Origin: a virus
Reading direction: 5' to 3' (one strand)
Virus record (IMG/VR): IMGVR_UViG_3300037852_000186
Span: 1-64,000 of that record
DNA: 64,000 nucleotides
Positions 2,500-43,858 of the stretch are shown piece by piece; the stretch's first letter is position 1, and each line of letters starts with the position of its first letter. The position numbers and the translations under genes were made by a program. The notes beneath the pieces were generated by a model. The model was given only the letters and a program-made list of their open reading frames with translations. It was not told the DNA's origin and searched no databases.

Positions 2500-2811
2500 T
2501 CAGTGATTCCGGGCTATATCAACGTTGGTTAAAGTTCCGCCGAATCGCGTAGCTCCGGTTTGTGGACACGCACTCGCATCACCCGTCAGCGTGACTATTT
2601 CACTGGATGTTTGCGCGCTCGTAAGCATTGACACCAATTGATTATCGGCTGTGCTGAAGTAAATAATAGGCGCCGCCTTCGTGCCGACGGGCATTGTGGG
2701 CACCGGGCCTTGTATGCGGTCAATTGTGCCACGCACTACGCAGGCTGCGTTAGAAATCGCGGCGATAGCTGTAACACTTATCAGCACGATCATCGTTAGA
2801 AAGTGTTTCAC
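2500..2811 (-). CDS. Secreted hypothetical protein
   Basis: GTG at 2811 follows AGGAGAG; MKHFLTMIVLISVTAIAAISNA signal peptide. Confidence 0.65.
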   Translation of the reverse strand: MKHFLTMIVLISVTAIAAISNAACVVRGTIDRIQGPVPTMPVGTKAAPIIYFSTADNQLVSMLTSAQTSSEIVTLTGDASACPQTGATRFGGTLTNVDIARNH

Positions 2812-2850
2812 GTGAAACTCTCCTATGCCGTCGCCGCGCCAAAGACCCAA

Positions 2851-3186
2851 TCATGGGGCATTGTATACAAGAGTCAGCATGCCGTTATAAGGTCTGGCCC
2901 CAGTAGGTCTAAACCTGACAGATATACTACACGCTGCATGTGCGGCCAGCATTGCACCACAAGTATTTGTTTGCGAATATCCTGTCGGCGCTGTGATGCT
3001 ATTAATTCGCAGGGCTACATTCTGTCTATTATTTAAGATTGCTGTTTTGGCGGGGCTGGTTGTGTTTATTTTTTGATTGCCGAACGATAAGTTACCAGGG
3101 AATAGTGTTACAGATCGTGTCCAAATTGCCCGCGCAGTTCCCGTGATGGCTATGATAAATATTACGATGCCGAGTTGTCGTTTCAT
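2851..3186 (-). CDS. Secreted Ig-like (choice-of-anchor D/ASH-like) domain protein, ending before the usual last strand
   Basis: Signal peptide; LSFGNQ..TTSPAKT...NTCGA.LA..A.CSISVRF.PT. Confidence 0.8.
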   Translation of the reverse strand: MKRQLGIVIFIIAITGTARAIWTRSVTLFPGNLSFGNQKINTTSPAKTAILNNRQNVALRINSITAPTGYSQTNTCGAMLAAHAACSISVRFRPTGARPYNGMLTLVYNAP

Positions 3187-3188
3187 AT

Positions 3189-6100
3189 TTATGCTGCTGC
3201 TGCGTCCGCTGCGACTACGTCAAACACCACTTCGCTCGAATAGACCGGACCGACTGGTCCAGGGAACATCAGGGCTACTGCCGCGTGCCAGCGTCCTATT
3301 GCGAAATCGCCAGGTACAACCGAGTATTCCCACTGCTGAGTGATTGTGTTCCAAGTCAGAGGGCGGGTCGTAAGATTATGGTTTTGGTCGCGAAGACAAA
3401 GGGTTGCGACAACCCCAGTGAAATCGTTGTAGCCACGGTTTACTGGCGAGAGTGGAAATCCCAGCACCTTGCCATTGTCCGCGAGCGTGACCGTGAAATA
3501 GCGATTGAAGCCTGTGCGTTCCCCTAGCATTGCGAAAACTGGCGCTCTGTAACCAAGGAGGCTCGCTATCGTGGTTTGGAGAGCGCTGAGTACGCTTTGG
3601 GCGAATTGTCTGATTGCTTGAATTGTAGTCACAACGGGCGCCATTAAGGTCATCGCGCCTTGGGCAATGAATGGTCCAATTCCGCTGAGCCCGAGCGCCG
3701 TGAGCTGCATGGTTACTTGTGCTGGCAACTTGCCCGCGAGGTTGGCGAGTACGGTTACGGTCTGATGAGTTACCGAGACTGCGGTAGCGACAAGCGCCTT
3801 GGTGGTGGAGTTTATCGCAAGTCCGATAATGGTCACTGCAATGATAGGCTTTCGGACTAGAACTCCCAGACTCGCCAATCGTGATGTGGAAATGGATGCA
3901 GCAATGCGGGCAATTAGTCGCGCGCTAGGAGTGAGGGCTTGATTAAGGATTGCACCAGCCGCCGAGATCCTAACCTTGACGGCCGCGATAACGTTTATGG
4001 CTTGGCTGATCGTCGCAAACGCCACATTGCGCGAGACTCGGAATAGAGAGATAAAGCTGGCAGCTACTGCGGGCGACAATATAACGAGCAGGGGTTTGCT
4101 GACGAATCTGGCGGCTGGAGTTACGGCTCGTCCAATTATTGCGTATGCTAAGGTCGCTGCGGTTTTAACTGGCGCCGCCGCGAGCAGCGCAATCGCCGCA
4201 ATCGATGCTGTTGCTTTGCCAATAAACCGGGCCGTAGCGCCTAGTGCCCGCGCGGTGATGGTCACGCTTGCTTTCGCCAGAAACCGCGCCGCCGACGTGA
4301 ATGCCTTGGCGGTTATCGCGTAGGTAGAAATCGCGCCAAGCTTGATCGTCTGAACCGTGGTCGCTGCTTGGCTTACTACGAGAAAAACTACTTGCTTGGT
4401 CATGCTCGTGCTGGCGGTCGCGGCAGCGACGAGCTTGGTGAGTGTGGCAGCGAGTTGGGCTGTAGGTATCAACCGAGAGGCTACGGCAAATGCTCGGCTA
4501 AGAATTGTATAGGTGGCCGTTACGGAGGTCTTGATTGCCGTTAACAGTGTGAGTGCTTGGGTGGAGATTGCTGCGGAAGCGTGTCCGATGAACCGAGATG
4601 CTGGGGTGAAGGCTTTGGCCGCGATGCTCGCGGATGCCTTACCGATGAACCGCGCTGTCACCGCGACGAGCGGGCTGGTCGCTGCATAAATTATTGTGGC
4701 GGTGGTCTTGATGGCCCCTGCTGCATTCAGTGCTTGCGCGCTGATGGCTGCGATGCTCTTGGTGAGAAACGAAGCCTTGGGAGCAAGGGCTTGCGCGAGC
4801 ACGGCGAAGCTTCTGCTCACGGCGGTCTTTACTGATTCGCTAGCGTTGACTGCGCGGTTCGCAATAGCTATCGCAACTGGCCCGAGGAAGCGCGCCGCTG
4901 GTGTAAGTGCCTGAATTGTAATTGCGAGCGCTATACTTGCTGCTGTTTTGATTGTGCCGCTGACATTGAGCGCTCGATTCGATACAGCAAGCGACACTTT
5001 GCCAAGAAGGCGCGAGGCTACTGTCAAGGCTTGGGAGGCTACGGTTAGGATCGCAACTCCCGTGGTTTTGACCGACCCAGCAGGGCTAAATGCCTTCGTT
5101 CCAATGATGACGGTTGCAGTTCCCGCGAACCTCGCGACTGGTGTGAGTGCGTCCGCCGATATTATGAGAATCGCGCTGAGAGTAGACTTTAGAAATTTGG
5201 CGAGATTGTGGGCACGTGGAATTCTTGTTCTCTGCGGTACGGCGTAACGACGCCTCGGGCGCATGCGCCGTGCGGTAGCGTAAATAAATCGCGCGGGCCT
5301 GATTCCGAACCGTCGCTTAATTGGTTGCACAGTAACAACCCGCCTTTTGCGTGTGAGTGCGTGGCGCGCTATTACCAGAAAGCCATTGAGTCGGGGAGCT
5401 GTTCGGCGTTTGAAATTGACAGTGGGAGATAGGAGCTTTTTGCGTTTAACGGCTCGCGCAACCCTGACGAACGGCATTCCGATGGCGTAAGTAAGGTGGT
5501 GTGCAATCCGATTACGGCGTGGCCGTTGCACCGCGCTAGGCCGCTTGCGTATTTGCGCTCGCCTGATTGTGGCCAGAAGCGGCGCGAATCGTCGCTCAGC
5601 TCGGCGCCTTGCCGCTGCCGCTGCAACTCGCGTCATCTTTCGCTTGATCCCGTGCGCGACACGAATGAACGGCATTCCGATGGGATAATAAAGATGTCTC
5701 GCGATTCGAGATCGCCGACGCTGTGCCGCTGCTGGCATGGCCGGTCGAACTCGCAAGCGGAGCGCTGCGTGAGCGGTATGAACTATAAACGTATGGACGT
5801 GCGGCGTAGGACGGAATCGTCGTGGTTGAGGTTGTGGTTGGGATAGGGCGTAACGGCGGCGGGGAGCGTGAGGTCGAGCGCTGCCGACAATCGCTGCTAT
5901 CGCCTGAAGAGCGATAATGATCGCTCCGCCATTGGTATTCCCACCGGCAGTAGCTTGAAATCCGTATGTGCCCGTTGCCGTGACGATCTGATAGGCCGAA
6001 TTAAATCCGTATCCATTGCCATTTACGACAGTTAATGCAGTAAACGTCCCACCCGTCGCGCCATAATCACTAAGTGTTGGCGTAAAGGTGCTACTATTGA

Positions 6101-6578
6101 CAGCCGTCCCAACCAATAGGTCATTGGCGTTAGTTGTGGTAATCGTGCCACTTTGCACATTCGCCGAAACGTTAGCATCAGTTCCGACACTTGACTTATC
6201 TACGGCCGCAGTAGTCGCCACACCGGAATAAGTAGATAGATTCGCCGCTATCCCATTGCCCGTCGAACCGGGGAATGTGCATGCTAACGTTACAATGGTC
6301 GCGCCTGATGGATGATTCAGTGAATAATGAATATCTACCTGAATACCCACAGAAGGAAACGCTGAAACCGGGCAAGACGTTAATTCAGTCCATACAGCGG
6401 AGCCTTGGTTATTATCAGAGACAGAAAATGTACCGAGAGATGTAAATCCCGTGTTTGGTTGCGATGATGAAGCTAGGACAAGACAATTTTCTCCAGCCGC
6501 TAACGTCAATGAGGGGAGAATCAGCGAACTACCGGACCCATTGTTGCCGCTAGTCTGCTGTTTAAAGACAATCGCCAC
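3189..6578 (-). CDS. Giant putative fibre protein: N-terminal beta domain, Arg-rich linker, Ala/Thr/Ile repeats, C-terminal BppU-like domain
   Basis: 1129-aa ORF tightly packed with neighbours; ALTPAARF/ALNAAGAIKT repeats; C-terminus paralogous to 11811..12113. Confidence 0.7.
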   Translation of the reverse strand: MAIVFKQQTSGNNGSGSSLILPSLTLAAGENCLVLASSSQPNTGFTSLGTFSVSDNNQGSAVWTELTSCPVSAFPSVGIQVDIHYSLNHPSGATIVTLACTFPGSTGNGIAANLSTYSGVATTAAVDKSSVGTDANVSANVQSGTITTTNANDLLVGTAVNSSTFTPTLSDYGATGGTFTALTVVNGNGYGFNSAYQIVTATGTYGFQATAGGNTNGGAIIIALQAIAAIVGSARPHAPRRRYALSQPQPQPRRFRPTPHVHTFIVHTAHAALRLRVRPAMPAAAQRRRSRIARHLYYPIGMPFIRVAHGIKRKMTRVAAAAARRRAERRFAPLLATIRRAQIRKRPSAVQRPRRNRIAHHLTYAIGMPFVRVARAVKRKKLLSPTVNFKRRTAPRLNGFLVIARHALTRKRRVVTVQPIKRRFGIRPARFIYATARRMRPRRRYAVPQRTRIPRAHNLAKFLKSTLSAILIISADALTPVARFAGTATVIIGTKAFSPAGSVKTTGVAILTVASQALTVASRLLGKVSLAVSNRALNVSGTIKTAASIALAITIQALTPAARFLGPVAIAIANRAVNASESVKTAVSRSFAVLAQALAPKASFLTKSIAAISAQALNAAGAIKTTATIIYAATSPLVAVTARFIGKASASIAAKAFTPASRFIGHASAAISTQALTLLTAIKTSVTATYTILSRAFAVASRLIPTAQLAATLTKLVAAATASTSMTKQVVFLVVSQAATTVQTIKLGAISTYAITAKAFTSAARFLAKASVTITARALGATARFIGKATASIAAIALLAAAPVKTAATLAYAIIGRAVTPAARFVSKPLLVILSPAVAASFISLFRVSRNVAFATISQAINVIAAVKVRISAAGAILNQALTPSARLIARIAASISTSRLASLGVLVRKPIIAVTIIGLAINSTTKALVATAVSVTHQTVTVLANLAGKLPAQVTMQLTALGLSGIGPFIAQGAMTLMAPVVTTIQAIRQFAQSVLSALQTTIASLLGYRAPVFAMLGERTGFNRYFTVTLADNGKVLGFPLSPVNRGYNDFTGVVATLCLRDQNHNLTTRPLTWNTITQQWEYSVVPGDFAIGRWHAAVALMFPGPVGPVYSSEVVFDVVAADAAAA

Positions 6579-7209: not shown

Positions 7210-9825
7210 TCAAGGTCCGCAGCCGCTGGCGCCCGCCTTGCACACAGTAAGGAAAGTACCGCCGCTGCTGTTGCATGTGACAGCATTATGAATAAGATGG
7301 ACATCTGTCACGCCAGCAGGTAATACGAAGTCTGGTGTCGATGATTGTTCTATCCCACCCGGTCGAAACAACGCATATTGAGCGAGAATCTGTGCATCGT
7401 GCGTTCCATCAAATAGCCCGTTGGGATTATCGTTGCTCATTACATTGTTCGCTCCTGGTTGACCCCACCAATTCATATACGTAGAAATCCCACTTCCAGA
7501 AGAACCATAGTTGATAGTGCCCGAAAACGTGCTAGCGAAACCATTGTCATTCACGAGCACTTTTGAAGGGCCGCTGATATTAACCGTGCCAGAGCCTGGT
7601 CCAAATGACTGCCCGAGGTGAGTAAGAGTATATGTGACATTAGCGCCACCGTTGATCGTGATAAATGGATTCGAGTTAGGATTCGCCATCCCTATGTCAC
7701 TTACGATCACAGATCCCGAGTTGCCAGTATCCGCATAAAGGATTGGGTTATTCCCGCCAGCGAGGTTGAGTTCATCCCAATTATGCTCCGCAACAACGTG
7801 CCCTTGATTGGTCACGCTTGCTACAGGCCCGATATTGTCATTGTATTCCCATACACGCAGCGCCGATGGGGACGCGAAATTGCCATCGCCATTAGCCGTG
7901 TATGACGATGTTAAGCAGGGGCACGTCCTCCAATAATCGCCAGCCGATGATCCACCATTCCAATCTACTATAGTATTAGTTAGCCCGGTGGTTTCAACAT
8001 TAAATGCGAGATTGCCATTGACTATGGCCAGATGCTGCCATGCAGTCACGCGAGCAGCGCCGACATTTCCCGGACCTGTAGCCGCACTATCTTCTGAATC
8101 TACTTGAACAATTACGGACTCGCTCGTCCCGCCTAAGTTCATATATTCCAGGCTAGCCTTACCTGGAGATTGTATCTGTATCATTGGCGTAATAGTGGAA
8201 TTTGTAGTGAGATATGTCGGCCCTGAAAAATACGCTCCCTCCCCTACGATATGTACATCGCAATGACCGGGAATAACCAATGTCGCATTTAAAGTGTGCG
8301 TGCCCGACGTTAGGTGAATTTGTGGGTGATTGCCGCCTTGGTATCCACTCGGACAAGCAGCGTTGACATCGCCTTGAATGTTACTACCTGCCTCGTCGCT
8401 ACCCGCTGAACCGCACTGCGCCGACGATCCACCGTTGAAATAGCATAGGCGATGTGGATTCCCTGATCCAGAATCTATTCCGGTGTTTGGTGGCGTCGGG
8501 TAACAACTAGATAAGTCTGTACTGGTGCTTCCCGAGATAGTCGGACAGGCGGTGCTGATACCAGTAACGCCATAGGTGTCGTTAATCTCTTTCAAACGAG
8601 GATTGCTACCGAGATTAAAACCTCCCGAACCTACGCTGAATTGATTGCCGATGGCCATAGCCGAACCTTGGTTAGCATTGCCGGTGAATGGAGTGCCGCT
8701 ACTTACAATTTGATTATCGAGTGCTAGATATCCAGTCTCACCAGCCATATTTACTGCGTTGCCGCTAGTTGGATTGAGAATGCGGTTGCCACGTAAGGTG
8801 ACGCCCGTGTCTCTACCGTCATTGTTCTGATAAAACCTACCAGAGCCAGAGCTTACATTATTGACCATCGAGAACGAGATGTAGTTACCTGATTGAGTAT
8901 CTATATCGTATGTGTTCGAGTGTATAAATACAGATCCTACGGAGTACCAGCCGCCAAAGGCGTTGGCGTAAATGCTTATATTGTTATTGATGAACGTGTC
9001 AAACATGGACGAGTTATTTTGATTATTGCCGCCCGACGTGATAGGGCCACAGGGGTCACCAGCGCCGTTGTCACCTTCGTAGATTGCGCAAGTAAAGTTA
9101 TAGAAGCGCCCGCGTATAATTTGGGTGTCAGGCGGCTGTAGATTAAGTCCTACGCCACCCTGTGCGCAAGGAAATGATGGGGGATTCAAAGAGGTGGGAG
9201 CACATCGTTCAAACGTGACATCCGTGATTGCTCCTTGCCAGCCCCCAACGGAGACACTGCCAGATTCCAGGAATTGCATACCCACCGATGCGGTAGCATT
9301 CAGATTCCAAGTCAACCTGTGAATATCCAGGAGAGACACGTCATAACCGGCCGGACTGGAGAACATCGGCGATACGCTACCACTATTCCATTTAAGTATG
9401 GTATCCGTGGGGCTGTGACCATACATGCGCGGTGGATAATATATAGCGGAATAGCCCGCACAGCCAGAGTTAGTACTGTTGCAAGCCGTCCATGTCAGAG
9501 TGCTGCCGAGCAGATACGTTCCAGCGGGGAAATAGAGTGCGCCGCCGTTATGTTGCTCGTAGGTGATACAGGATTGCAACGCAGCATCCACATTACCCGT
9601 CAAGCTCGTACCCGTGCCGGTACATACCGCACCCCCTCCACCGACCGGAGCCCCCGTCTGAACATTAATCCATGAAGCGTAGGGACCAGCGAATTCATCC
9701 TCGGGGGTGTTGGCCGACACTACAGTTCCCGTTCCGCTTAGATTCACGGTTCTAGTCGCGGCAATCGCGGACGTAACGCTGAAGTTGAGTAGAATGAGAA
9801 ATATGAGAAATAGTTTACGGACCAT
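7210..9825 (-). CDS. Secreted pectin-lyase-fold (parallel beta-helix) protein, tailspike/depolymerase-like
   Basis: Signal peptide MVRKLFLIFLILLNFSVTSAIA; D.ALQ.CI...GALYFPAGTYLL cap motif, and a second cap (AAC...IHLTSGTHTL). Confidence 0.75.
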   Translation of the reverse strand: MVRKLFLIFLILLNFSVTSAIAATRTVNLSGTGTVVSANTPEDEFAGPYASWINVQTGAPVGGGGAVCTGTGTSLTGNVDAALQSCITYEQHNGGALYFPAGTYLLGSTLTWTACNSTNSGCAGYSAIYYPPRMYGHSPTDTILKWNSGSVSPMFSSPAGYDVSLLDIHRLTWNLNATASVGMQFLESGSVSVGGWQGAITDVTFERCAPTSLNPPSFPCAQGGVGLNLQPPDTQIIRGRFYNFTCAIYEGDNGAGDPCGPITSGGNNQNNSSMFDTFINNNISIYANAFGGWYSVGSVFIHSNTYDIDTQSGNYISFSMVNNVSSGSGRFYQNNDGRDTGVTLRGNRILNPTSGNAVNMAGETGYLALDNQIVSSGTPFTGNANQGSAMAIGNQFSVGSGGFNLGSNPRLKEINDTYGVTGISTACPTISGSTSTDLSSCYPTPPNTGIDSGSGNPHRLCYFNGGSSAQCGSAGSDEAGSNIQGDVNAACPSGYQGGNHPQIHLTSGTHTLNATLVIPGHCDVHIVGEGAYFSGPTYLTTNSTITPMIQIQSPGKASLEYMNLGGTSESVIVQVDSEDSAATGPGNVGAARVTAWQHLAIVNGNLAFNVETTGLTNTIVDWNGGSSAGDYWRTCPCLTSSYTANGDGNFASPSALRVWEYNDNIGPVASVTNQGHVVAEHNWDELNLAGGNNPILYADTGNSGSVIVSDIGMANPNSNPFITINGGANVTYTLTHLGQSFGPGSGTVNISGPSKVLVNDNGFASTFSGTINYGSSGSGISTYMNWWGQPGANNVMSNDNPNGLFDGTHDAQILAQYALFRPGGIEQSSTPDFVLPAGVTDVHLIHNAVTCNSSGGTFLTVCKAGASGCGP

Positions 9826-10867
9826 TGTCAACTACCGTGAGTGAACCGTTTACAGTTGTTTGGCTAGCGGGCGTGAAAGTTACGGACACTGAGCAATTGG
9901 CGCCAGCGCCTATTGATGCGCCGCAAGTGTTAGCCGAGATCGCATAACTAGCGGGCGATATAGTGATGCTGGTAAAGTTCAGCGGTACGGCTTGCACATT
10001 GCTGATGGTGACGGACTGCGCCGCACTGGTTTGTCCTACCGTTACGCTGCCGAAGGCTAGAGTGTTCGGAACGACTGAGACATGAGGCACGCTCGGCGCC
10101 AGGGCCACAATACCGCCGCAAAAATTACCGGTTGGGGTGAAAGCGCGTTGGAGGCTGGTATTTTGAGAGACGACAGCAGGTTCGGTTGCTGCCCCGATTG
10201 CTATGAAAGCATTAGAACCGATAGGGCCAAGGTCTGTGGGCGTGCCCGCGCCGACATTATTAGAAGATGCACCAGAAAATGCAGGACTGGTCGCTTCGGT
10301 GTAGAATAAACCAAAGAGTGTGTCGTTGGGCAAGGTAGCCGCGTTGGTGCCAGTAATTGCGGTTGCGCCTGCCGTGTATGGAGTGCCCGTACCGTTGTCG
10401 ATTAGCCCTAGATTATTGACCGTGCATAGGTATGCACCGTTGTTGCTTCCTTGATTGGGTTCGTGTGCGGTTACAGTGTCGGCACCTGTGAGGGGTGCGA
10501 GTACGTACTCGAAATTAATACAGTTATTAGATACCGCACCGACATTAGAAATAGTTGCCCAAGTATTGCCTTGGGTGTCAGTAACTGCGGGGTCGCCTGT
10601 TTGACCTTTATGGAATATTACCAACGATTGGCCAGCGGTCACGGTAACTGGTGCTAACACTACGTCATCGGCGCCCGCTGTGGCCCCGCCCGACGCCACG
10701 CCAGCAACGCAAGTACCAATAGTGGGAGCGTTGGAGACTACGACTGGGGAGCCTGCACTTGTGCCGATGAAGAAGATTCCCGTCGCGTTCGCAGGAGATG
10801 CGCGTGTACCGAGTATTGTACAGAGGCAAATAAGGATAGATATTCGCACGAGGCGTGAATGGTTCAT
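9815..10867 (-). CDS. Secreted protein: beta-sandwich domain plus C-terminal Ig-like (choice-of-anchor D/ASH-like) domain lacking its last strand
   Basis: Signal peptide; PNTLAFGSVTVGQTSAAQSVTISN...NTCGASIGAGANCSVSVTFTP; stops at LTVVDNGP. Confidence 0.78.
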   Translation of the reverse strand: MNHSRLVRISILICLCTILGTRASPANATGIFFIGTSAGSPVVVSNAPTIGTCVAGVASGGATAGADDVVLAPVTVTAGQSLVIFHKGQTGDPAVTDTQGNTWATISNVGAVSNNCINFEYVLAPLTGADTVTAHEPNQGSNNGAYLCTVNNLGLIDNGTGTPYTAGATAITGTNAATLPNDTLFGLFYTEATSPAFSGASSNNVGAGTPTDLGPIGSNAFIAIGAATEPAVVSQNTSLQRAFTPTGNFCGGIVALAPSVPHVSVVPNTLAFGSVTVGQTSAAQSVTISNVQAVPLNFTSITISPASYAISANTCGASIGAGANCSVSVTFTPASQTTVNGSLTVVDNGP

Positions 10868-11810: not shown

Positions 11811-12113
11811 TTAATCCGGTGGTAGCACGTCAAAAATAACTTCACTCGAATATATCGGCCCGCGAGGACCAGGAAACGTTACCGCGACTTCTGCCCAATA
11901 GCGTCCCGCTGGAAACTCCCCAGCAAAGACCGCATATTCCCATTCGATAGTTATCGTGTTCCACGCCATAGTGCGCGTGCGCAGCAGGTTGCCTTGGTCG
12001 CGGATATTGAGTACGGCGGACGCTCCGGTGAAATCATTAGGATCGCCCGAATGCTTGCGGAGCGGAAAGCCGAGCACTTTGCCGTTGTCTGCTGTCGTGA
12101 ATGATGGATACAT
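11811..12113 (-). CDS. Stand-alone BppU-N-like (Ig-fold adaptor) protein
   Basis: DFTGASA.L.IRD, WEY.V..G.F..G.Y.AEV.VTFP; TAATG overlap with the upstream gene. Confidence 0.7.
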   Translation of the reverse strand: MYPSFTTADNGKVLGFPLRKHSGDPNDFTGASAVLNIRDQGNLLRTRTMAWNTITIEWEYAVFAGEFPAGRYWAEVAVTFPGPRGPIYSSEVIFDVLPPD

Positions 12114-15100
12114 TACAGCGTTGCATCGAAAGCAATGACCGCATCTAGCTCCGCGTCAAATACGATAACGACAGGCGGTGATGCGTGCGCAAATGGGAAT
12201 TGTTGGGCCAGCAGAGATAATCGAGCGTAGAAGGCTGCTGCGATTTGCCTGACGCCTCCACCCAATATAAAGCCACCACCCCAGGCCAAGTTACGTATAT
12301 TAAACGCCGCCGCGAACGATCCTTTAATTGTTGTCAGTGTAGAAAATGCGGTTCCAACAATCGCGAATATACGGTTCGCGGCCAATCGTAGAGATGAGGT
12401 AACCGCGCTGACACCTACCGCGAGTGTGCCCAATACGCGGGTTCTAGTTATTGCTGTCGTTGTGAAGCGTGGAAGATGTAGCGCAAACGCCACGGCGGCG
12501 CCAGCCAATTGTGAGCTTAGGGTAATGAAGATAGTGAGCGGGGTCCGAATTGCGACGATTACGCTGGTCGCTTTCTTTACTAGGCTGATGTTTGAAAAAG
12601 ATGTTGCCGTAGCCGAGAGTAAAGTAGAGATTCGGGTAATGATTCGCGTGGTAGTAGTTAGAGCTTGTGTGATGATGGCAAAAGCGGTCAGTGGCAGAGG
12701 TCGAACCTTGGCTAAGTTAGTAAAGCTGGGAAGTTGCGCGACCAACGTAGAGACTGTTTGTTGAAAACGCGTGCCGCCTGCTGCTAAGACTCGGGGCGAT
12801 GCCAATATCGTTATTGTGGTGGTGGCAACGGTTTTAATAGTAGCAAGTCGCGATAACGCAGTGGTTAGGGCGCTGAGTCCTACTCTTGTGGTTAGCCGTG
12901 CTGAAGCGGTGAGTGCCCGAGCGGTGAGTGTGAAAATTGCCGTTGTTGCTGTTTTGATAGTCGGCGAGATGCCGAGTGCGGAACTGAGGATTGACGTGTT
13001 TGCAGTAAGAACATCAATAATTCTGCTGAATACATAGCCTGCCGCCAGCGCTGGTTGCGAAATGCTAAACGGCAATACCCGCGAAATTCGTACAGACATT
13101 ACCGCGCCGAGGGCGCGGTTTATAATTGAGTAGGTAACGTTAGGTCGAAGCTTGAATATCGTCAGCGCGGTTACCGCGCGGTTGATGATGGTCACCGCCA
13201 CAGCCACGGGCATTTTCATGACTGCGGCGGGCGTAAAAGACTGCGTCAAAATAAGAAACGATCCGGAAATATTGCGAATTGTAGTCGCGATGGACGCGGC
13301 GGCACCCAATGCGTCCGTCAGAATAGTGCTAGTGGCTTTCGCCATGAGCCTAGCGGACGGTGCTAGGGCTTTCGTTGTAATGCTGAGGGTCGTAACGGTG
13401 GAGGTGCGAATCAAACCCGCAGCGTTGAGGACGCGGCCTAGCAATACGAGACTGGCGCTTGTAGCGGTTCTGATGAGCGATGTTGGAGTTAGTGCTTGAG
13501 TCAGGATTCCGAGCACTACATTGGCGCCATAGCGGGGGGTTTTAAGCAGTGTACCCGCACCGAGAATTGGAGTTAATATGGCCGCGAAGATTGTGCGAGC
13601 AAGGCGCGGCGCGGTGACTACGCGTGGAGAAAGTGCGGTTAGTGCTGAGCGTCCAATAAAGCGTGCGCTCGTCTTCGCTGCGGTTATCGCTGCGCTTAAT
13701 GAAACTTTAGTTGCTAGACGTGAAGCAGGCGTGAGAGCTTGCGCGATGATCGCTATTGCCGCAGTCGGAATACTCTTGACTGCGCCCGTCGTCCCGAGGG
13801 TTCTATTGATAATAGTAGATGTTGTTTTGGAGATTAGGCGAGCGACGATGTTTGCTTTAGACTGTAAGAGCGGAAAAGTGAGTCTAGTAATTAATTGCGC
13901 GCCGGTTCCGAGAACTTGGGTCAGCAAGCTAAAAGTTGGTCTGGAAAGAAAGCGGCTTGCAGCTCCGAGCGTATCTGCCAAGATTGCCACAGTTTGGTTT
14001 GCGACTTTCTTGATGGCTCCCGTTGCATTCAAAGCCTTAGCAATTAAGGCTAAAGTGGCTGTAGGCACGTAGCGCAGACCAGATATGGAATTAAGGACCG
14101 TTGTCAACGCGGGCACAAGCACGCCGAGTATTATTTTCGGTCGAATCGTCAGCGCTTGAGCATTGATAGGAAGTGTTGATTTACTAAGAAGTAGCGCGCG
14201 CGCGGTGACTGCACGTCCCAATCGCAAGGGCTGCCAAGGCACGGCGAAGGCCCATCTGGAAAATTTAGCCGCAAAGTTAACCGTGGCTGCTAGGATAAAG
14301 TGTTGCGTAACGACCGTGGTCAGCGTAGTGGTCGGATGCCCAAGCCGTATAGGTTGCCATGGTAATGCAAATACCCATTTGCTGAATCGGGTAGAGATAG
14401 GTATGCGCGCAAGCGCCACGAGGCGCGGAAGTGCGGCCGCTGGAGTAAGTGCTTGAACATTGATCGGTGTACTTACTCGGTCGGTCAATCGAGACGCGGG
14501 CAACAGGGTGCTCGCGGGTATTGTCACCGCCGCGATAGGGGTAGCTCCTTGTTTAAAGACGACCAGAGCTGTAGCCCAGTTACCAGAACCCGCAGTCATT
14601 CCTGTTGCGTATGTGCTAGTTGCCGTGACAGTGAGGTCGCTGAGGGCGTATCCAAGTGGTCCGCCTAAATCATTTCCCGCTCCAGCCCCAACCCCACCAG
14701 TAGCAAACTCTGAAATAAATGAATTAGTAGGTACGGTCGGCGTTGTTTGTATATCGCTGGCCACGCCAAATACTAACAAGTCATTCGCGTGAGTAGTAAT
14801 CGCATTGCCACTAATCGGTGCGGCACTCGTCCCTGAGTTGACAGCGGAGGGGAGAGCATCGATACCCTCGCCGTAGGTCGCGTATTCGGCGACTATGCTG
14901 CCCACTGTGATATGGCTGGTTCCTGTCTGACCGTTGAACAACGGATTTATTGTAGCTCCCGCCGTTACGCATACCGCCGACCATATCTCTATTCGCGCGC
15001 CCGCAACGCCGCTTCCGTTTGAGCGAGCCGCTCGCAGATTCCACAGTGCTCCCAGGCCAACTATAGTCGAAATCGTCGGCGAAGGATTATTCACCGATCC

Positions 15101-15820: not shown

Positions 15821-16102
15821 CTATGCTTTGTGGCCAGTCACCATCTTCCAACGCTTTAAAGCATGGGGGCTAATGGCTGCTGCCTTCTCTTCGCTTTCCC
15901 AATGCTCCTGCGCATGTTTGAGGAGGTCGGTAGACTTCGGTTTGCCGTCTAGGGGTTTACCGCAACCGCCGCAAAATGCGTGACCTTGCGGATTGAAGCG
16001 ACCGCAAACGCATACACCAGCTAGGTGCATGCGACACTCCGGACAGATAGATCGCGCGATGTCCGCTTCGTCCATAGCAATCTGTTCAGGGGTTAGGGGC
16101 AT
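15821..16102 (-). CDS. Small Cys-rich (zinc-ribbon) protein
   Basis: CPEC, CVCG and FCGGCG motifs; AAGGAG RBS. Confidence 0.6.
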   Translation of the reverse strand: MPLTPEQIAMDEADIARSICPECRMHLAGVCVCGRFNPQGHAFCGGCGKPLDGKPKSTDLLKHAQEHWESEEKAAAISPHALKRWKMVTGHKA

Positions 16103-19098: not shown

Positions 19099-19100
19099 AT

Positions 19101-33022: not shown

Positions 33023-33544
33023 CTAGATCGCGCCGACATTCGCTTTAAAACCGAATAAGCGGTCTGTCCCCGCAACGGTATAGATGTTAGCAAACACGTC
33101 GTACAGGAGATGTTGGACGCCAGCTATGATGTATTCGCAGTGGTACACAATTAGAGTACTCGGGAAATCGACGTTCTCGTGTTGCTTGAAATTGAGCGGC
33201 CCGCCGTCTTTGAACTGCGCCGTCATCAGACCAATGAATGGCACTTCCTGTGTGCGTCCTTGTGAAGTGTATACTTCTTTGGATGCGCGAATTTGAAATT
33301 GATGCGAGTCGAAGATACTCATGGAATTGAGCACTTCACCGTATATCGAGATCCATTTGATCTTCGCTTCGAGCTTGTCGATACCTACGGGTATCTCGGC
33401 AGTGCCAGCCATGCCGAGCCCCTTGTGGTCGATAGTCTTGGCTTTGGGCCACGCGAGTTCTACTTCTTCGGCGCGACCTAACAGGGAAGTGCCATCAAGG
33501 TAAATATTCGCGTTGTGGACCGACGAGACATTAATCAGGGCCAC
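33023..33544 (-). CDS. Major tail tube protein (P2 FII-type)
   Basis: NANIYLDG.SLLGRAEEVEL, GIDKLEAKI.W, DVFANIY.V.G.D. Confidence 0.92.
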   Translation of the reverse strand: MALINVSSVHNANIYLDGTSLLGRAEEVELAWPKAKTIDHKGLGMAGTAEIPVGIDKLEAKIKWISIYGEVLNSMSIFDSHQFQIRASKEVYTSQGRTQEVPFIGLMTAQFKDGGPLNFKQHENVDFPSTLIVYHCEYIIAGVQHLLYDVFANIYTVAGTDRLFGFKANVGAI

Positions 33545-33558: not shown

Positions 33559-35718
33559 TTACTGTGCTGCGGTAGTAGCCGCCCCAGTTAATTGCGCCAG
33601 CAGGTTCTGGTCAATAAAGACGTTGAAGGTGAGCCGTTCAGCGGGGGGTGGCGGCATACAGTCTATATCGAAAACCAAATGGCCGGCCGCGGTTTCGGAA
33701 GGGGGATTTTCGGCGGGATTATATGTAGCAGTACCAGCGACCAGCGCTCCGCGTCCAATTAAGGTACGCAGAAAGCTATTGGCGCTGGCAAGAATGGTGG
33801 TGATGAGGGAGTTACTAATCGGCTGATCCAAAAATTGCATCATCGACAGCATCACGCTCTGTTCGATGACATCCATAGTGCGGCGAATCGGGATAAATAC
33901 GTCAGGCGTGGTGTTGGATGGGAAGCCCGCGCTGCGATTGCCCCACACGCGCAGACCGGTGCCGAAGGCTTGGAACGCTGTCACGATGCCCTGTGAGTTA
34001 AGCACGTTGGTATCGCTGGCCGCGTCGATGAAGCTCGCGTAAATGTTCGTGTCTGGTCCGAGCATGCCGAATATCTGCGTGTTCGACGGCGACCACCAGT
34101 AGCCTTGTGCGAGGTCTTTTGCAGAGGTCGCGCCAGCTACCCAAGGGCTGAAAGGTCCGCTGTGCGTTACGTTCGCGATGGTCGCTACTGCATTGCCGCT
34201 GATTGGGTCGATGCCTATGCTGTTCGGTACGACGCCGCTGTCGAGAAATAGTTCTTGTGGGCCGCAGAGGATCGCGCGCTTGTCGCTGGTATTAAACGAA
34301 TTGCCAGAGGCCCCGCGATTACTGAGCAACGTGGCTGGTGCTGTAAGGGGTGGGCAATCGACGAAGTACATTGCGCGCATTGCAAAAGCGACAGTTGCCA
34401 TTCCAGCGGATACGGTTGCATCTTGAGACCCTACGGTTTGTCCAGTCGGGATATAGGTTCCGAAACTCGGGGCAATTAGGAGTTTCGGGAAGAAACCCAT
34501 CAGATTGTAGCTGAGCTTCCACGCCTGCATTCCTGTGTAGACGTTGCTGGCGACGGAGCCGACGAGGTCAGAGTCCACCAGCTTACTTGGATCGGTGTAA
34601 TTGCATGTGATTTTGATTGTTTGGCCTGCCACAAGCAGCCCGCCACCAATAGCTTTGACAATTCCGTTAACTCTATCGACGGTAAAATCCGCACCTTCAA
34701 CATAGGTAGTAGAGACCGCACTATTTGTAATCTTGATCGTGGACAGCCCCATGTGGCCGACGTTGATCGCTTGAGAGCCCGAGGCCGGGAAGGTATAAGA
34801 CACAGCCGTAAGCGTTGAAAAATGTTTGGTTTGGTCGAAGACATTGACCGCGATCACTTGCCCTGCGCCCTGTGCAAAGACTTGATTAAGCGCATAGGGA
34901 ATCGTGAAACCCTGAATCATCGGGCCGAAGGTGCCGGATTGGCCGGGTGCTAAGGAGTTCGGATTCGAGCCGGCGACGAGCATTGGCGTTTGAAGGTTCG
35001 CGATTGGTCCTTTCGCGGTTAAGGTCCAGGTAACCGTTCCGGTAGCCGTCGCAATCGTGTCCGCTGTGGTGGCGCCGACAGTAGTTGCCCAGCTTGGCGC
35101 GGCTGTGGCGCTCGTTATGGCCGCCTTGCCTATCGCGACTAGCGTCCAGATGACTCCATTGTCGGTAGGCGAGGCTGTGCCGAGTGTGGTTGCCCAAACT
35201 GGAGGTGCACCGCCCGAGGTGCCAGCAGTCGTGCAGCGCTGGGTATTTCCATTCGAATCTAAGACTAAATAGCCAACAACGTATGATGTGCCGAGTACCC
35301 AGACTGGTAGCACGATTCCGGTCGCGGTCTGAATATTGCCATTCGCGTCAATGCACTGCTGACCAGCCGCCGCGCCGATTGCCGAGAGAGTCCAGACTAC
35401 AGAACCGTCACTAACAGTAGAACCGATCGTGCGGCCCCAGGCTGGCGTTGCGCCGTTCGTGGTGCCAGGGGTGGTACATTTCTGAGTGTTGCCGTTTGAG
35501 TCGAGGAGAAGATTGCCGACTACTTGCGCGGTGTTGGGACTCCATGCGGCGGCGGCTTGCACTAACCACGAAAGATCCCAAAGTGGTATCGCACCGGGGA
35601 CGGCGAAGAGCGGAGCAGAGCCGACTAGCCCGATGACTGCGCTGTTAACGACGGTTATCGGCGTTGGACCTATCGCGAATTCAAATGTCTCTACGCCATG
35701 AAGGAAACTAGCAGGCAT
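33559..35718 (-). CDS. Tail sheath protein (P2 FI-type) with inserted accessory domains
   Basis: MPASFLHGVET, SAVIGLVG.AP, GYWWSPSN, LN..GI, G.R.WGNRS, PPPPAERL.F. Confidence 0.95.
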   Translation of the reverse strand: MPASFLHGVETFEFAIGPTPITVVNSAVIGLVGSAPLFAVPGAIPLWDLSWLVQAAAAWSPNTAQVVGNLLLDSNGNTQKCTTPGTTNGATPAWGRTIGSTVSDGSVVWTLSAIGAAAGQQCIDANGNIQTATGIVLPVWVLGTSYVVGYLVLDSNGNTQRCTTAGTSGGAPPVWATTLGTASPTDNGVIWTLVAIGKAAITSATAAPSWATTVGATTADTIATATGTVTWTLTAKGPIANLQTPMLVAGSNPNSLAPGQSGTFGPMIQGFTIPYALNQVFAQGAGQVIAVNVFDQTKHFSTLTAVSYTFPASGSQAINVGHMGLSTIKITNSAVSTTYVEGADFTVDRVNGIVKAIGGGLLVAGQTIKITCNYTDPSKLVDSDLVGSVASNVYTGMQAWKLSYNLMGFFPKLLIAPSFGTYIPTGQTVGSQDATVSAGMATVAFAMRAMYFVDCPPLTAPATLLSNRGASGNSFNTSDKRAILCGPQELFLDSGVVPNSIGIDPISGNAVATIANVTHSGPFSPWVAGATSAKDLAQGYWWSPSNTQIFGMLGPDTNIYASFIDAASDTNVLNSQGIVTAFQAFGTGLRVWGNRSAGFPSNTTPDVFIPIRRTMDVIEQSVMLSMMQFLDQPISNSLITTILASANSFLRTLIGRGALVAGTATYNPAENPPSETAAGHLVFDIDCMPPPPAERLTFNVFIDQNLLAQLTGAATTAAQ

Positions 35719-39428: not shown

Positions 39429-39725
39429 TTATTCCGGATGTACGTTTCCCGGCTCGCGTTCATTGCCCCGATGCTTGGAATCGCGGTCGTCTTTCCATCG
39501 GGGGAAATGTCGCTTGGCTTCACTCGGACGATTATCCGCCCACCAGTATGAATCGTGATATTGGCCAGATTCGTCAGCACACCATTTATTCTGGATACAC
39601 TTGGCATGATGCGGGGCTGGGTGGTGATAGTAATGATGCTGGGCGTACGCGGGAGCCGAAGTACTTGCGCTTACACAGCCGGTTAGAAGAATCAGAGTGA
39701 GTATTGCGGTTAGTCGGTTTGCCAT
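39429..39725 (-). CDS. Putative His-rich lipoprotein
   Basis: MANRLTAILTLILLTGC lipobox; AAGGGA RBS. Confidence 0.6.
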   Translation of the reverse strand: MANRLTAILTLILLTGCVSASTSAPAYAQHHYYHHPAPHHAKCIQNKWCADESGQYHDSYWWADNRPSEAKRHFPRWKDDRDSKHRGNEREPGNVHPE

Positions 39726-39732
39726 AGTTCCC

Positions 39733-40593
39733 TTAGTTGTTTGGATAAAACGGTACGTTGCCACCACTCGCCAGTGCGGTCACGATATCCGAATACGTAT
39801 AGCTGACCGCCACTGTTGCTCCACTCGCAATCCCGCCTCCGTTTACTCGCGTGATTATTCCGTTGACGTTGTCGAGTAAGTAGTCGGTTTGCGCGAGATA
39901 GGTGGTGGTCAACGCTTGATTCTTGATTATGAGGTCTGTGATATTGCCTTGCGGCAGTGCAATCGTGTCCGACGCGAAGGTCAGCAACTCCACACCTATT
40001 TTCGTCGCGGTAACTCGCAATGCAGATTCCTCTAATACCTTGCCTTGCACGAAAGGAGGGAACGTCGGCGTTTGGAAGTTCTCAATAACAACAGTGCGAG
40101 TACTGAAGGTTGACTCGTAGACCCAGACACCACCTTGCTTATCGCGGTCGATGAAGCGTTCGCGAATTGCTTTCATGGGTGTGCAGCCTGTGTTGGCTTG
40201 AAAGCCCAGCAGAGCAAGGCGCACAGCTTCAATTATTTGGTAAGCCCCTGGACTCGTGCCGCTCGGCGGTCCGCCGAATGCCCAGCCTAAATCGCGTATG
40301 CGGAGGCCAACAGCAAATTCTAGTGTACGTTCCTGTGCGACATGGCCGATATCTTCGATGACGCCAAAGTCTGAGCCCATGAAAATAACCATCGCTACTC
40401 CGATGCGATGGCGCATTTCGTAAGCCTCGGGCTTGTCGGGGAAGTGTGTAACTTCTATCATCTGTGGGCCGAGCGCAGCGCCGAGATAAGTCTGTAGCTG
40501 TCGAACTATCGCCGCCTCGATGGTTGCGATACCCAGATCTGTGGGCGGGTTGAATGTTTGTCCGGTCCAAGGACTATCTAGAAACGCCGCCAC
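39733..40593 (-). CDS. Mu Gp37-family tail terminator/neck protein with an extra C-terminal domain
   Basis: IE.AIV..L, FPDKPE.Y, Q.RT..F, GAY..IE.VR.ALLGF; GTG start at 40593. Confidence 0.8.
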   Translation of the reverse strand: MAAFLDSPWTGQTFNPPTDLGIATIEAAIVRQLQTYLGAALGPQMIEVTHFPDKPEAYEMRHRIGVAMVIFMGSDFGVIEDIGHVAQERTLEFAVGLRIRDLGWAFGGPPSGTSPGAYQIIEAVRLALLGFQANTGCTPMKAIRERFIDRDKQGGVWVYESTFSTRTVVIENFQTPTFPPFVQGKVLEESALRVTATKIGVELLTFASDTIALPQGNITDLIIKNQALTTTYLAQTDYLLDNVNGIITRVNGGGIASGATVAVSYTYSDIVTALASGGNVPFYPNN

Positions 40594-40595
40594 GT

Positions 40596-41075
40596 TTATT
40601 GTCCTATAGTACCTACAACCGTCTGGCCCACAATCCAATGACCATCGCCGTCATTAAGATCGACCGCTGTCCCTACGAAAGGGTTAGGCCGCGTCGGCAC
40701 GATACTCGCCGAATAGTAATTGAAGCTGATTGATCCGCCGACGTTGTTCACGGAATGTTCCGGTTCCGTCGCGCGATAACAGCGGTCGCCCGAACTTACC
40801 GTTAGTGTCAGTGTTTTGGGATTTCCTAGGCCGAAGTGCAAATCATTTGGGTTGGTAAATACACAAACGATGCCATCGCGCGGGTCGTCGCTATCCTGAT
40901 AGGAAAGTGTGATGTTCAACGTCTCATGATCGCCGAACCCTCCCGCTATTCCAATCGTGCCGTGATCATTGTGAGTGTCGCTGGCGCCGCCAAAACCTGA
41001 GATATTCGCAGCGTTTGCCGCTGTCGCAAACGAGAACGCGATGCCTAATGCTATTAGCGTGTGGCGTCGTATCAT
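40596..41075 (-). CDS. Secreted hypothetical protein between gp36 and gp37
   Basis: Signal peptide ending ANA; 2 Cys. Confidence 0.65.
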   Translation of the reverse strand: MIRRHTLIALGIAFSFATAANAANISGFGGASDTHNDHGTIGIAGGFGDHETLNITLSYQDSDDPRDGIVCVFTNPNDLHFGLGNPKTLTLTVSSGDRCYRATEPEHSVNNVGGSISFNYYSASIVPTRPNPFVGTAVDLNDGDGHWIVGQTVVGTIGQ

Positions 41076-41081
41076 TGATAG

Positions 41082-41549
41082 TTAGAAACCCTTCATCGTG
41101 CTGCGTCTAAAAATGCGCTGCGGCAAACATGGGTCGCCGCCGAAATTCACGTCCATTACAACTGCTGGCACTGACGGATCTGCCGGTTCTGTGCCTGTTG
41201 CTGTATTGAGTCCGAGGGTTAGTTGCCCTTCGCTCACTTCGTCGAGGAACTTGCAATTCTTCTCGTAAATTAGCTTGGCGTATTCGAGGTCGTGGATTGG
41301 CCGCAAAGCTTGCAAGTGAAACATCGCAATCTCGCAGCACACGCGAGTCAAGATCGACGGGGGGTTTATTAGCGGGAGCGCGAAGCGAGCTTCGATGTAG
41401 GAATCGATCTCATCCGAAGCGTCGTCAAGGAAGGTCTGGAGATAAGTAGCATTGATGGTGGTGACGGTCGGGTCCTCGTTGGTCAACTGGACCAGATCGC
41501 GATTGGGGTAGCGCAAGGCCATGTCGTTTGTAGTAGCGTATCCCATCAC
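41082..41549 (-). CDS. Mu gp36/DUF1320 head-tail adaptor
   Basis: YAT..D...RY...L.QLT, DAS.EIDSY...R..LPL..P..L...CCEIA. Confidence 0.9.
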   Translation of the reverse strand: MMGYATTNDMALRYPNRDLVQLTNEDPTVTTINATYLQTFLDDASDEIDSYIEARFALPLINPPSILTRVCCEIAMFHLQALRPIHDLEYAKLIYEKNCKFLDEVSEGQLTLGLNTATGTEPADPSVPAVVMDVNFGGDPCLPQRIFRRSTMKGF

Positions 41550-42682: not shown

Positions 42683-42791
42683 AGGCTACTCCTTGGATGC
42701 TTTGCTGAGTATGGTTCGCCGTGTCGCAACCAGCACCACGCATAGGCAGGATGACGTATTGCCCAAGCAATAGTCTGCAACTTCAACTTCA

Positions 42792-43133
42792 TTAGTTGTG
42801 GACCGGAACCCCGAACTTCATGTCGATTGCGCTAAGAGCGCCAGCGCCGACAGTTACGTCGCCGCCCACACCGGTATATGGCGAATGCGGATCACCGGGC
42901 ACGGTCACTTGCAGCATGACGCTCGCGACTCCGAGTTTGCCAGTCGAAGTGACGAGCGCGGTCATTCCGGTCGCGTCAGCCGGATCTGGAACAACGGTGA
43001 TAACTGTTGCGTCGGACGAGGACCAAACCGCTGCGGCGCCAGCCGGCGCGGGAACCACATTGGGCGGAACCGCATCGTCTACGAATTCAATCGTTGCGGA
43101 TACGTGTGAATCGTCGGGTAGAGCGAAAGGCAT
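42792..43133 (-). CDS. Small Ig-like (Big_2-like) protein
   Basis: WSSSDATV.TV, G..GVA.V; AAGGAG RBS. Confidence 0.7.
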   Translation of the reverse strand: MPFALPDDSHVSATIEFVDDAVPPNVVPAPAGAAAVWSSSDATVITVVPDPADATGMTALVTSTGKLGVASVMLQVTVPGDPHSPYTGVGGDVTVGAGALSAIDMKFGVPVHN

Positions 43134-43145
43134 TAAATCATCTCC

Positions 43146-43378
43146 TTACTTGTGGTGAACCACTCCAAACTTTATCGCGACGTGGTCCAGTTGTGGCGTC
43201 AGCGTCTTTATGATTGTGTCAAGTTTCGTTCCGAGTGCTGTTACGCGGAGCGTCAGCGCCAAGAACCCCGCATCAAGCTTCGCGCCGTTCGCGGCCAATT
43301 CGGTAGTTTGCTTCTGTAGCAACACGGTCTGCTTTTGAAGCTCCGCGAGGATTTGGCCGAAGATCCACGTCTCGTCCA
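43146..43378 (-). CDS. Short coiled-coil protein
   Basis: Heptads LQKQT.LLQKQT...KLD; ATG directly after the upstream stop. Confidence 0.6.
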
Positions 43379-43858
43379 TTATGGACAGCTCAGCATCGCC
43401 GAACAAGAATATCTCGGAACGGTACAAGTGCCGGGAGTGCCAGTCTGAGCAAGGCCAATTATGTTGCCCGCCGTGACAGCCAAGGTTTCAGCAGAGCTAG
43501 CTACGGTTGCTACTGTTGTCGTTGGACTTACCGCTGTTCCTACTGTTGAGCCAGTGATGTTTGTGATGTTTACTGTCGGTCCAGTTGTGCAGGCTCCGGT
43601 CAATGTGGCCGTACACATCAGACTGATGAACTTGCCAGTGCATGGAGCTTTCTGCGGAGCAACTGCCGTTGCGGGTAGAGTGCCCAAGTCGCCGCTCCAG
43701 TAGATAGGATAATATTGAGTTACTGGCGGTAGTATTGTACCGTGTTGAGTTCCGGATGACTGCCCGATTGCAGCGTATACATAACTCGCAGGACTTGGAG
43801 CATATATGCCCAAGCCGACAACAAGCATTAGGAGAACGGCAAATTTAATAACCTTCAC
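43379..43858 (-). CDS. Secreted Cys-rich protein downstream of the capsid gene
   Basis: Signal peptide; 6 Cys; AGNII.L...GT pattern. Confidence 0.65.
   Translation of the reverse strand: MKVIKFAVLLMLVVGLGIYAPSPASYVYAAIGQSSGTQHGTILPPVTQYYPIYWSGDLGTLPATAVAPQKAPCTGKFISLMCTATLTGACTTGPTVNITNITGSTVGTAVSPTTTVATVASSAETLAVTAGNIIGLAQTGTPGTCTVPRYSCSAMLSCP

Follow-up and report, generated by a model that had tools for sequence, protein, structure and literature searches.

Predicted exported, cysteine-rich accessory proteins interleaved with the virion genes of a Mu-like phage of Binatia

Results

A linear virus record of 99,974 bp (IMG/VR record IMGVR_UViG_3300037852_000186) contains, in its first 64 kb (contig C1:1-64000, hereafter the window), the virion operon of a phage that is Mu-like in gene content, with matches to capsid, protease/scaffold and baseplate genes. 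Dispersed among these genes are 11 that encode proteins with predicted signal peptides (SP1 to SP11) and two that encode predicted lipoproteins. We consider it probable that the 11 SP proteins and the two lipoproteins are exported accessory proteins which act on the envelope or on extracellular glycans and are not core parts of the virion; no evidence that the SP proteins belong to the virus particle was found in this sequence analysis. Export together with disulfide formation is well supported, though not proven, by signal peptide conservation, Cys enrichment and covariation in the SP8 family.

Signal peptides in the virion operon

Signal peptides were predicted using our own rule-based scorer, which looks for a net positive charge, followed by an uncharged hydrophobic stretch of 7–20 residues and a −3/−1 small-residue site (threshold 4.7), with plus-strand decoy open reading frames (ORFs) and shuffled N-termini (first 60 residues of virion-region proteins) serving as controls. 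An earlier note on this DNA had listed 11 genes as signal-peptide-bearing, and all 11 starts (2811, 3186, 9825/9831, 10867, 18056, 21050, 24101, 25089, 25522, 41075 and 43858) were borne out, with scores of 4.75–5.65, n-h-c architecture in 11/11, h-regions of 10–13 residues and an AxA-type site after the h-region. Fewer than one was expected from the controls, in which 1 of 146 plus-strand ORFs exceeded the threshold and shuffling produced 0.06 matches per set (maximum 1). The h-regions are of cleavable length and too short for a membrane anchor. The two lipobox proteins reported in the same note were also recovered, both having LLTGC, which agrees with the lipobox pattern L-[ASTVI]-[GAS]-C closing the h-region. 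In the homologues of lipoprotein 1 the lipobox is kept in L002 (LLSGC) and L003 (CAGC), plus two further Cys.

Throughout the rest of the 100-kb contig, only components of the type IV secretion system (T4SS) and one 65-aa membrane peptide reached the threshold, and no ORF did so in the replication/regulation part (67–100 kb). The 65-aa peptide (45159–45356, minus strand), encoded just before the major capsid protein (MCP) gene, is Gly/Ala-rich and hydrophobic with two likely membrane segments; it has a signal-peptide-like score, yet looks like a small membrane protein.

Several starts carry caveats. For SP6, an external gene caller chose a start 13 codons inward, which would drop the n-region, although the SP6 homologue in L003 (702 aa) displays a clear signal peptide despite this ambiguity. 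The signal peptide of SP1 requires the GTG at 2811 (GGAG upstream) and not the TTG at 2850, and the n-region of SP7 is long (19 residues).

Distribution among related loci

Relatives were compared across a set of 41 loci around the baseplate hub gene (gpD). In the window, a signal peptide was present in none of the 17 core virion genes versus 11 of the 43 accessory, lineage-specific genes (p = 0.025). Core genes recurred in 14–34 of the 41 loci (sheath in 34, Gp37-like in 28, tube in 24, adaptor in 17), and the genes for MCP, protease, gpU, gpV, gpW, gpJ and gpI were present in most loci reaching them. No recurrence in the 41 loci was detected for SP1 to SP5, SP10, SP11 and lipoprotein 2; SP6 and SP9 recurred in one locus each, SP7 in two and SP8 in four. 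Searching 5.8 billion proteins yielded two homologues of SP3, one of SP6 and three of SP7, and tblastn with SP3, SP6 and a 1233-aa protein of the same block against 50,697 GenBank phages produced no match. The pooled GC content at third codon positions (GC3) was 0.504 for signal-peptide genes versus 0.597 for core genes.

The commonest architecture in Binatia is gpD-gpV-gpW-gpJ-gpI followed by a 215-aa protein and a 190-aa fibre, with no inserts. The same baseplate is built in relatives lacking these genes, and the particle of this lineage can evidently be assembled without them. Different signal-peptide or lipoprotein genes occupy the junction between gpD and gpV (D/V) in L001, L003, L005, L006 and L011, and in G001, the closest provirus, the W/J junction encodes a signal-peptide protein of 541 aa with 18 Cys; in this phage an HNH gene takes that position. 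Some relatives carry signal-peptide genes past the fibres. From these comparisons, the SP genes are evidently fast-turning cargo in fixed slots (between gpD, gpV, gpW and gpJ and in the head-neck region).

The HNH gene is one of two endonuclease genes of this type within the baseplate cluster (24105–24692 in the SP8/SP7 interval and 1381–2043 in the gpW/gpJ interval, both on the minus strand; phrog_826 at 5.5e-50, PF01844). No other genes of the block have a GC3 as low as theirs (0.40 and 0.46), and they may act as homing elements that contribute to slot turnover.

Past the fibres of canonical relatives lies a gene for a signal-peptide protein of 590–1300 aa (PF12708 plus LamG), followed by one for a GT87 membrane glycosyltransferase. 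Post-fibre signal-peptide proteins were compared from L008, L009, L010, L012, L013, L030, L035 and L040 (at ~15.4–19.7 kb) and from L042 (8927–9709). Their lengths range from 215 to 1228 aa, and they have in common a mature N-terminal module of ~85–125 aa (QYQ/QYR…; 40–54% identity) and, except for L012 and L042, a C-terminal module of ~54 aa (54–72%) akin to part of the N-terminal one, with a far more divergent beta-helix/LamG middle (23–29%). Separately, repeated peptide strings (such as GINSV and KTRDPS…REGDKQG) were seen in unrelated ORFs of L002 (IMG/VR UViG 3300017448_000010), suggesting that copies of a short DNA repeat are dispersed between its genes.

Cysteine content and the SP8 family

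The mature parts of the 11 SP proteins contain 88 Cys in 3,560 residues (2.47%) versus 105 in 11,758 residues (0.89%) for the other virion-operon proteins (odds ratio 2.8, p = 7e-12). Individual mature counts from SP1 to SP11 are 2, 2, 19, 6, 2, 17, 26, 2, 4, 2 and 6; the even numbers in 9/11 agree with the paired Cys described in the earlier note. Two giant proteins of the same block without a signal peptide contain 3 Cys (1233 aa) and 4 Cys (1129 aa). All homologues found for SP3, SP6, SP7 and SP8, those of SP8 being from L003 and from 25 database representatives, likewise carry a signal peptide, with h-regions that differ in sequence. DsbA-like genes were present in each of three Binatia genomes carrying related prophages (3–4 per genome).

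SP8 has a paralogue without a signal peptide directly after the MCP gene (BLASTP: 49% identity, E = 3e-25). An exhaustive search for the SP8 family returned only 54 representative clusters, and covariation was counted on full-length members. A terminal Cys pair, composed of a Cys right behind the cleavage site and a Cys three residues from the C-terminus (…FCDW/Y/F), was present in 22/25 signal-peptide forms and in 0/8 forms without a signal peptide (p = 1.2e-5); two of the three exceptions were a truncated sequence and a sequence with a longer linker. In this family, gain of the signal peptide thus goes with gain of the terminal Cys pair, which possibly offers a sequence rule for spotting exported phage paralogues. 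The SP8 gene comes after gpD in L002, L003, L005 and L028. A related-locus search with the paralogue at 43863–44150 found nothing.

An AlphaFold2 (AF2) model of the mature SP8 domain (pLDDT 96) is an eight-strand jellyroll, and its fold resembles many uncharacterised 90–100 aa proteins of uncultured tailed phages (TM 0.6–0.8). In the PDB, Ena spore-pilus subunits were the best fold matches, followed by PirA, viral turret/spike domains and a phage cement protein (Z 5.6). The Z value was 8.3 for the Ena entry 7a02 (root-mean-square deviation 2.8 over 81 residues) and 7.0–7.2 for three other Ena entries, a range typical of unrelated small beta-sandwiches. With the Bacillus Ena endospore-appendage subunits (7a02, 8pdz, 9i0y, 9t3p), SP8 would share a ~95-aa eight-strand jellyroll with Cys near a terminus. 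Ena (DUF3992) subunits have a flexible N-terminal connector of ~15 residues with a Cys-Cys motif (10.1101/2020.08.21.260141), whereas SP8 has neither connector nor Cys-Cys motif and no sequence relation to them, and its host is Gram-negative. Membership of an Ena-type pilus was rejected for SP8: the mature family starts with x-C, a single Cys, and strand 1 follows directly.

Domains of the predicted exported proteins

The recognisable part of this predicted secretome is of carbohydrate-directed or surface types (beta-helix, choice-of-anchor D and jellyroll). The glycan theme is drawn from the Beta_helix domain in SP6, the PF12708 relatives of SP3 and the choice-of-anchor D domains of SP2 and SP4. 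SP6 matched PF13229 at 2.3e-8, and its ESM Atlas neighbours were bacterial Beta_helix/NosD clusters (score 0.95). The only two homologues of SP3 (P0060, P0061) both have PF12708 in addition to a signal peptide. PF12708 is of the pectate-lyase/rhamnogalacturonase/epimerase type. SP3 itself contains, twice, what we take to be the cap motif usual for the beta-helix fold, and BLASTP found no significant similarity between SP3 and the signal-peptide beta-helix proteins that canonical relatives carry. NF012200 was matched above its NCBIfam cut-off of 45 by both SP2 (61.1 bits) and SP4 (59.1 bits), the latter also matching PF15780 at 2.7e-11, and SP2 shares 42% identity with the SP4 C-terminus. The choice-of-anchor D domain is one typically seen in surface proteins of bacteria.

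SP7 comprises three ~200-aa repeats with about 4 Cys each, as judged by eye, plus a Gly-rich C-terminal part. All three of its homologues (P0002–P0004) carry a signal peptide, and the mature N-terminus QSIGGGG is common to P0002 and P0003. A homologous fragment of SP9 in L028 retains the same cleavage region. Family searches revealed no recognisable domain in SP1, SP5, SP9, SP10 or SP11. PDB sequence searches with SP6, SP7 and SP3 found nothing significant, matches to EspP at E of about 0.02 being regarded as noise, and no PEP-CTERM-type sorting signals were seen by eye in the C-termini of SP3 and SP7. Among the domain types that the earlier note had assigned, beta-helix (SP6) and Ig-like (SP2, SP4) were upheld and a fibre domain was not confirmed.

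Gene map, expression and host

All long ORFs of the window are on the minus strand (Table 1). The coordinates of the MCP, adaptor, gpD-like, gpV, gpW and gpJ genes confirm that the SP genes are truly interleaved with capsid, neck and baseplate genes, as had been noted earlier, SP10 for instance lying between the adaptor and the Gp37-like gene. The record ends 10 bases past gpJ, and gpI and the fibres are therefore off the record.

Table 1 Coordinates of the predicted exported proteins and of landmark genes in and around the window
Feature	Coordinates	Strand	Length (aa)	Remarks
Baseplate_J (gpJ)	11-1381	minus		PF04865, 2.5e-48
Baseplate gpW	2050-2496	minus		83% identity to L003 gpW; precedes gpJ
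SP1	2500-2811	minus	103	score 4.9; 2 mature Cys; no family match
SP2	2851-3186	minus	111	score 5.49; choice-of-anchor D / ASH Ig-like domain
SP3	7210-9825	minus	871	score 5.39; 19 Cys; pectate-lyase-type beta-helix relative
SP4	9815-10867	minus	350	score 5.01; C-terminal choice-of-anchor D / ASH domain
SP5	17634-18056	minus	140	score 5.65; cleavage between AFA and G; 2 Cys; no family match
Baseplate spike gpV	18517-19173	minus		PF04717; 52% identity to L001 gpV
SP6	19101-21050	minus	649	17 Cys; right-handed beta-helix
SP7	21051-24101	minus	1016	score 4.75; 26 mature Cys
SP8	24742-25089	minus	115	score 5.38; 94-aa jellyroll; Cys at +2 and -3 from C-terminus
SP9	25076-25522	minus	148	score 5.42; 4 Cys
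Baseplate hub (gpD), P2 gpD / Mu gp44 type	25668-26711	minus		phrog_52, 2.1e-79
Lipoprotein 1	28307-28684	minus		lipobox LLTGC; between gpU-like and gpD-like genes
gpU-like	28681-29415	minus		
Tape measure	29897-32299	minus		
Tube	33023-33544	minus		
Sheath	33559-35718	minus		
Lipoprotein 2	39429-39725	minus	98	lipobox LLTGC by pattern match; Shine-Dalgarno sequence upstream
Gp37-like protein	39733-40638	minus		
SP10	40596-41075	minus	159	score 4.8; twin Arg in n-region; Shine-Dalgarno sequence upstream
Head-tail adaptor	41082-41549	minus		
SP11	43379-43858	minus	159	score 4.76; 6 Cys; two genes past MCP; no family match
SP8 paralogue without signal peptide	43863-44150	minus	95	directly after MCP; without terminal Cys pair
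Mu gpT-like MCP	44163-45146	minus		phrog_371; 37% identity to B3/D3112-like phages
Mu-type protease/scaffold	46897-48714	minus		PF10123
Large terminase	50430-52058	minus		
Relaxase/type IV coupling protein (T4CP)/VirB (T4SS) block	~54.6-66 kb	minus		same strand as phage genes

Gaps between genes in the 2.5–25.6 kb block range from −17 to +55 nt, barring overlaps from uncertain starts, and several start codons abut or overlap the preceding stop. Sigma-70-like promoters in 1–20 kb numbered 9, compared with 17.7 expected from shuffled sequence, and intrinsic terminator-like sites numbered 20, compared with 19.3 expected, with similar results for 20–40 kb; the promoter consensus may not fit Binatia. 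The tight gaps and the lack of promoter or terminator excess suggest co-transcription with the late genes.

The hub (gpD) has relatives at 38 loci, which are almost exclusively in metagenome-assembled genomes labelled Candidatus Binataceae, Binatia or 'Deltaproteobacteria', and the host is therefore taken to be a member of Binatia. Binatia are a Gram-negative, uncultured lineage of soil and peat. No description of Binatota/Binatia prophages was found in a literature search.

Other features of the window were recorded alongside. Only two small ORFs are located in the interval between large terminase and protease/scaffold (within 46897–52058), and the Mu-type portal (PF06074) gave no match on the 100-kb contig, nor did it in control genomes. 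Extra Ig-like or repeat insertions are present in the sheath, gpJ, the Gp37-like protein and a head protein at 46132–46896 (phrog_807, phrog_20240, phrog_20658), and short proteins from the fibre region of relatives share the N-terminal ~80 residues of gpJ. A pair of paralogues on the minus strand, 16086–16916 in the baseplate block and 45346–46125 just before the MCP gene (40% identity over 254 aa), belongs to a largely viral family of ~230–270 aa with a predicted fold like GT-A (GT2) glycosyltransferases (Atlas TM 0.67–0.69), which raises the possibility of virion or glycan glycosylation.

The block also contains a duplicated module (3189–6578, 11811–12113 and 12113–15814). The two giant proteins are 25% identical over 828 residues, and the C-terminal ~100 residues of the 1129-aa protein match, at 58% identity, the product of a separate 100-aa gene located behind that of the 1233-aa protein; in L003 and L028 the 100-aa gene immediately precedes gpW. 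Each duplicated module is followed by a signal-peptide choice-of-anchor D protein (SP2, SP4), either directly or past two small genes. The idea that a second paralogue pair differs in the presence of a signal peptide was dropped, as jackhmmer from the N-terminus of the 1233-aa protein gave no link to the L001/L008 signal-peptide proteins.

Discussion

Upon the observed signal-peptide architecture, Cys pattern, accessory distribution and domain types, we infer the timing, route and target of these proteins as follows. The SP genes would be transcribed together with the structural genes and, in part, be coupled to them in translation; the products would reach the periplasm via Sec, lose their signal peptides to signal peptidase I (to signal peptidase II in the case of the lipoproteins) and probably receive their disulfides from a host Dsb-type system. 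They would then bind, cut or modify envelope or extracellular glycans, whereby receptor or matrix may be stripped or masked around the dying cell and progeny could escape instead of being lost on debris. Other phages might also be kept out, and after lysis the proteins would be free soluble enzymes or lectins. Export with oxidative folding in the periplasm, the first half of what the earlier note had proposed, finds support in the conserved signal peptides, the Cys enrichment, the covariation in the SP8 family and the DsbA-like genes of the host lineage; its second half, that the proteins are appendages added to virions at lysis or adhesins for mating, does not.

Of these two roles, addition after lysis would mean that appendages or decorations acquire their disulfides while folding in the periplasm and join completed virions once lysis mixes the compartments. 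Several observations agree with it: the genes are located inside the clusters for head, neck and baseplate and probably share their expression, SP8 is 49% identical to the product of an MCP-adjacent gene and has a jellyroll common among phage proteins of ~90–100 aa (and weakly similar to the phage cement protein), and the beta-helix is the usual form of tailspikes. We nevertheless hold it to be unlikely, because no core gene has a signal peptide (0/17), all 11 SP genes are lineage-specific insertions, canonical relatives without inserts assemble the same baseplate and the slot contents vary among close relatives. Furthermore, no anchor domain common to the virion was found, and there were no homologues in cultured phages among those tested, hence no proteomic support. 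We know of no tailed phage that adds periplasm-matured parts, and a literature search found no tailed-phage virion protein matured via Sec; were SP8, or SP3 and SP6, such add-ons, they would reveal an assembly route through two compartments, of which tailed phages offer no described case. A role as mating adhesins or matrix fibres for the T4SS module, or as disulfide-linked jellyroll surface fibres, appears less likely still. The relaxase-T4CP-VirB module is indeed on the same strand, choice-of-anchor D domains are typical of surface proteins and the best PDB fold match of SP8 is a disulfide-linked pilus subunit (Ena). However, the SP genes are 30–60 kb from the T4SS genes, within baseplate genes, and no VirB4 match was obtained in G001 (~62% complete), which has the same SP6/7/8-type genes, or in two Binatia genomes with related prophages; a third Binatia genome gave a marginal match (23.1 bits, E = 1.3e-4; cut-off 21 bits) on another contig. 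The fibre variant is further weakened by the absence from SP8 of the Ena connector and Cys-Cys motif and by a Z of ~8 being usual for unrelated small beta-sandwiches.

Two further explanations concern when and whether export takes place. Lysogenic-conversion or superinfection-exclusion genes, such as lambda Lom/Bor, HK97 gp15, T5 Llp and gtr-type O-antigen conversion genes, would be expressed mainly in the lysogen from internal promoters and would remodel or shield the envelope against other phages. The accessory, variable and low-GC3 character of the SP genes is in keeping with this, as is the GT87 membrane glycosyltransferase gene adjoining that of the signal-peptide beta-helix protein in canonical relatives; against it stand the short gaps and the lack of sigma-70-like promoter and terminator excess, a weak objection given that Binatia promoters may differ, and the small size of known exclusion proteins versus three of 649–1016 aa here. 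On balance this explanation seems rather unlikely. It is highly improbable that the proteins are not exported at all, the predicted signal peptides being start-codon artefacts or uncleaved anchors holding structural proteins at the inner membrane while assembly proceeds. While the ambiguous start of SP6 and the 19-residue n-region of SP7 might be cited in its favour, the h-regions are too short for anchors, the architecture is kept across diverged homologues, and neither the Cys enrichment nor the covariation of the signal peptide with the Cys pair would readily be expected of cytoplasmic proteins.

The reading of the SP proteins as exported, glycan- or envelope-directed accessory proteins also has points that weigh against it. 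The glycan role rests on four proteins and their relatives, 7/11 being counted as without a recognisable domain, and the AF2 model of SP6 (3-sequence alignment) had a pLDDT of 29.8, was not used and allowed no active site to be read. The tight packing within baseplate genes is atypical of classical morons and would also fit structural proteins. In addition, the SP8 paralogue sits where head-decoration genes usually lie, a possible hint of virion binding.

Most known cases of exported accessory proteins in late operons involve one small gene, such as those for lambda Lom and Bor, HK97 gp15, T5 Llp and T4 Spackle, whereas a 13-protein secretome, including some very large members, is predicted here; relatives follow the same pattern with other cargo. 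The lineage may consequently be viewed as a natural catalogue of fast-evolving, disulfide-stabilised envelope or glycan proteins, with candidate depolymerases, lectins and exclusion factors; a practical limit is that both host and phage are uncultured.

Phage morons provide the closest likeness, in that signal-peptide or lipobox genes stand among virion genes, are absent from relatives, are dispensable for the particle and act on the envelope. In agreement with this, presence and absence of the SP genes vary among syntenic relatives, and their base composition differs from that of their neighbours. Unlike morons, the 11 + 2 genes of this phage amount to 11.5 kb (24% of the 48.7-kb virion operon), encode proteins of 649–1016 aa among others, occupy all junctions of the D-V-W-J baseplate cluster, and have no promoter or terminator of their own visible in the sigma-70 consensus scan, which may not fit Binatia. 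Receptor-blocking lipoproteins such as T5 Llp and the soluble phage depolymerases are precedents for the predicted activities, although the soluble depolymerases known to us leave the cell through lysis and have no signal peptide. Like those depolymerases and WceF, SP6 has a right-handed beta-helix fold of the carbohydrate type, here plus an export signal, and would accordingly act on exopolysaccharide either in the periplasm or outside the cell. WceF of Pantoea stewartii, a Tat-exported tailspike-like exopolysaccharide hydrolase (PMC7949094), is a further precedent; it differs from the SP set in being chromosomal and in using Tat, and enzymatic activity of the SP proteins is only predicted. 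With tailspikes, SP6 (PF13229) and the homologues of SP3 (PF12708) have the right-handed parallel beta-helix in common; an N-terminal particle-binding domain was not found in SP3 and SP6, whose N-termini are signal peptides. Finally, gpD, gpV, gpW and gpJ are present in the same order as in the Mu/BcepMu-type and P2-type baseplate modules (Mu gp44-48; P2 D, V, W, J, I), but ~20 inserted genes, nine of them with signal peptides, extend what is normally a contiguous cluster to 26.7 kb. Exported accessory proteins and soluble depolymerases are known in themselves, and it is their number, size and placement that is unusual here.

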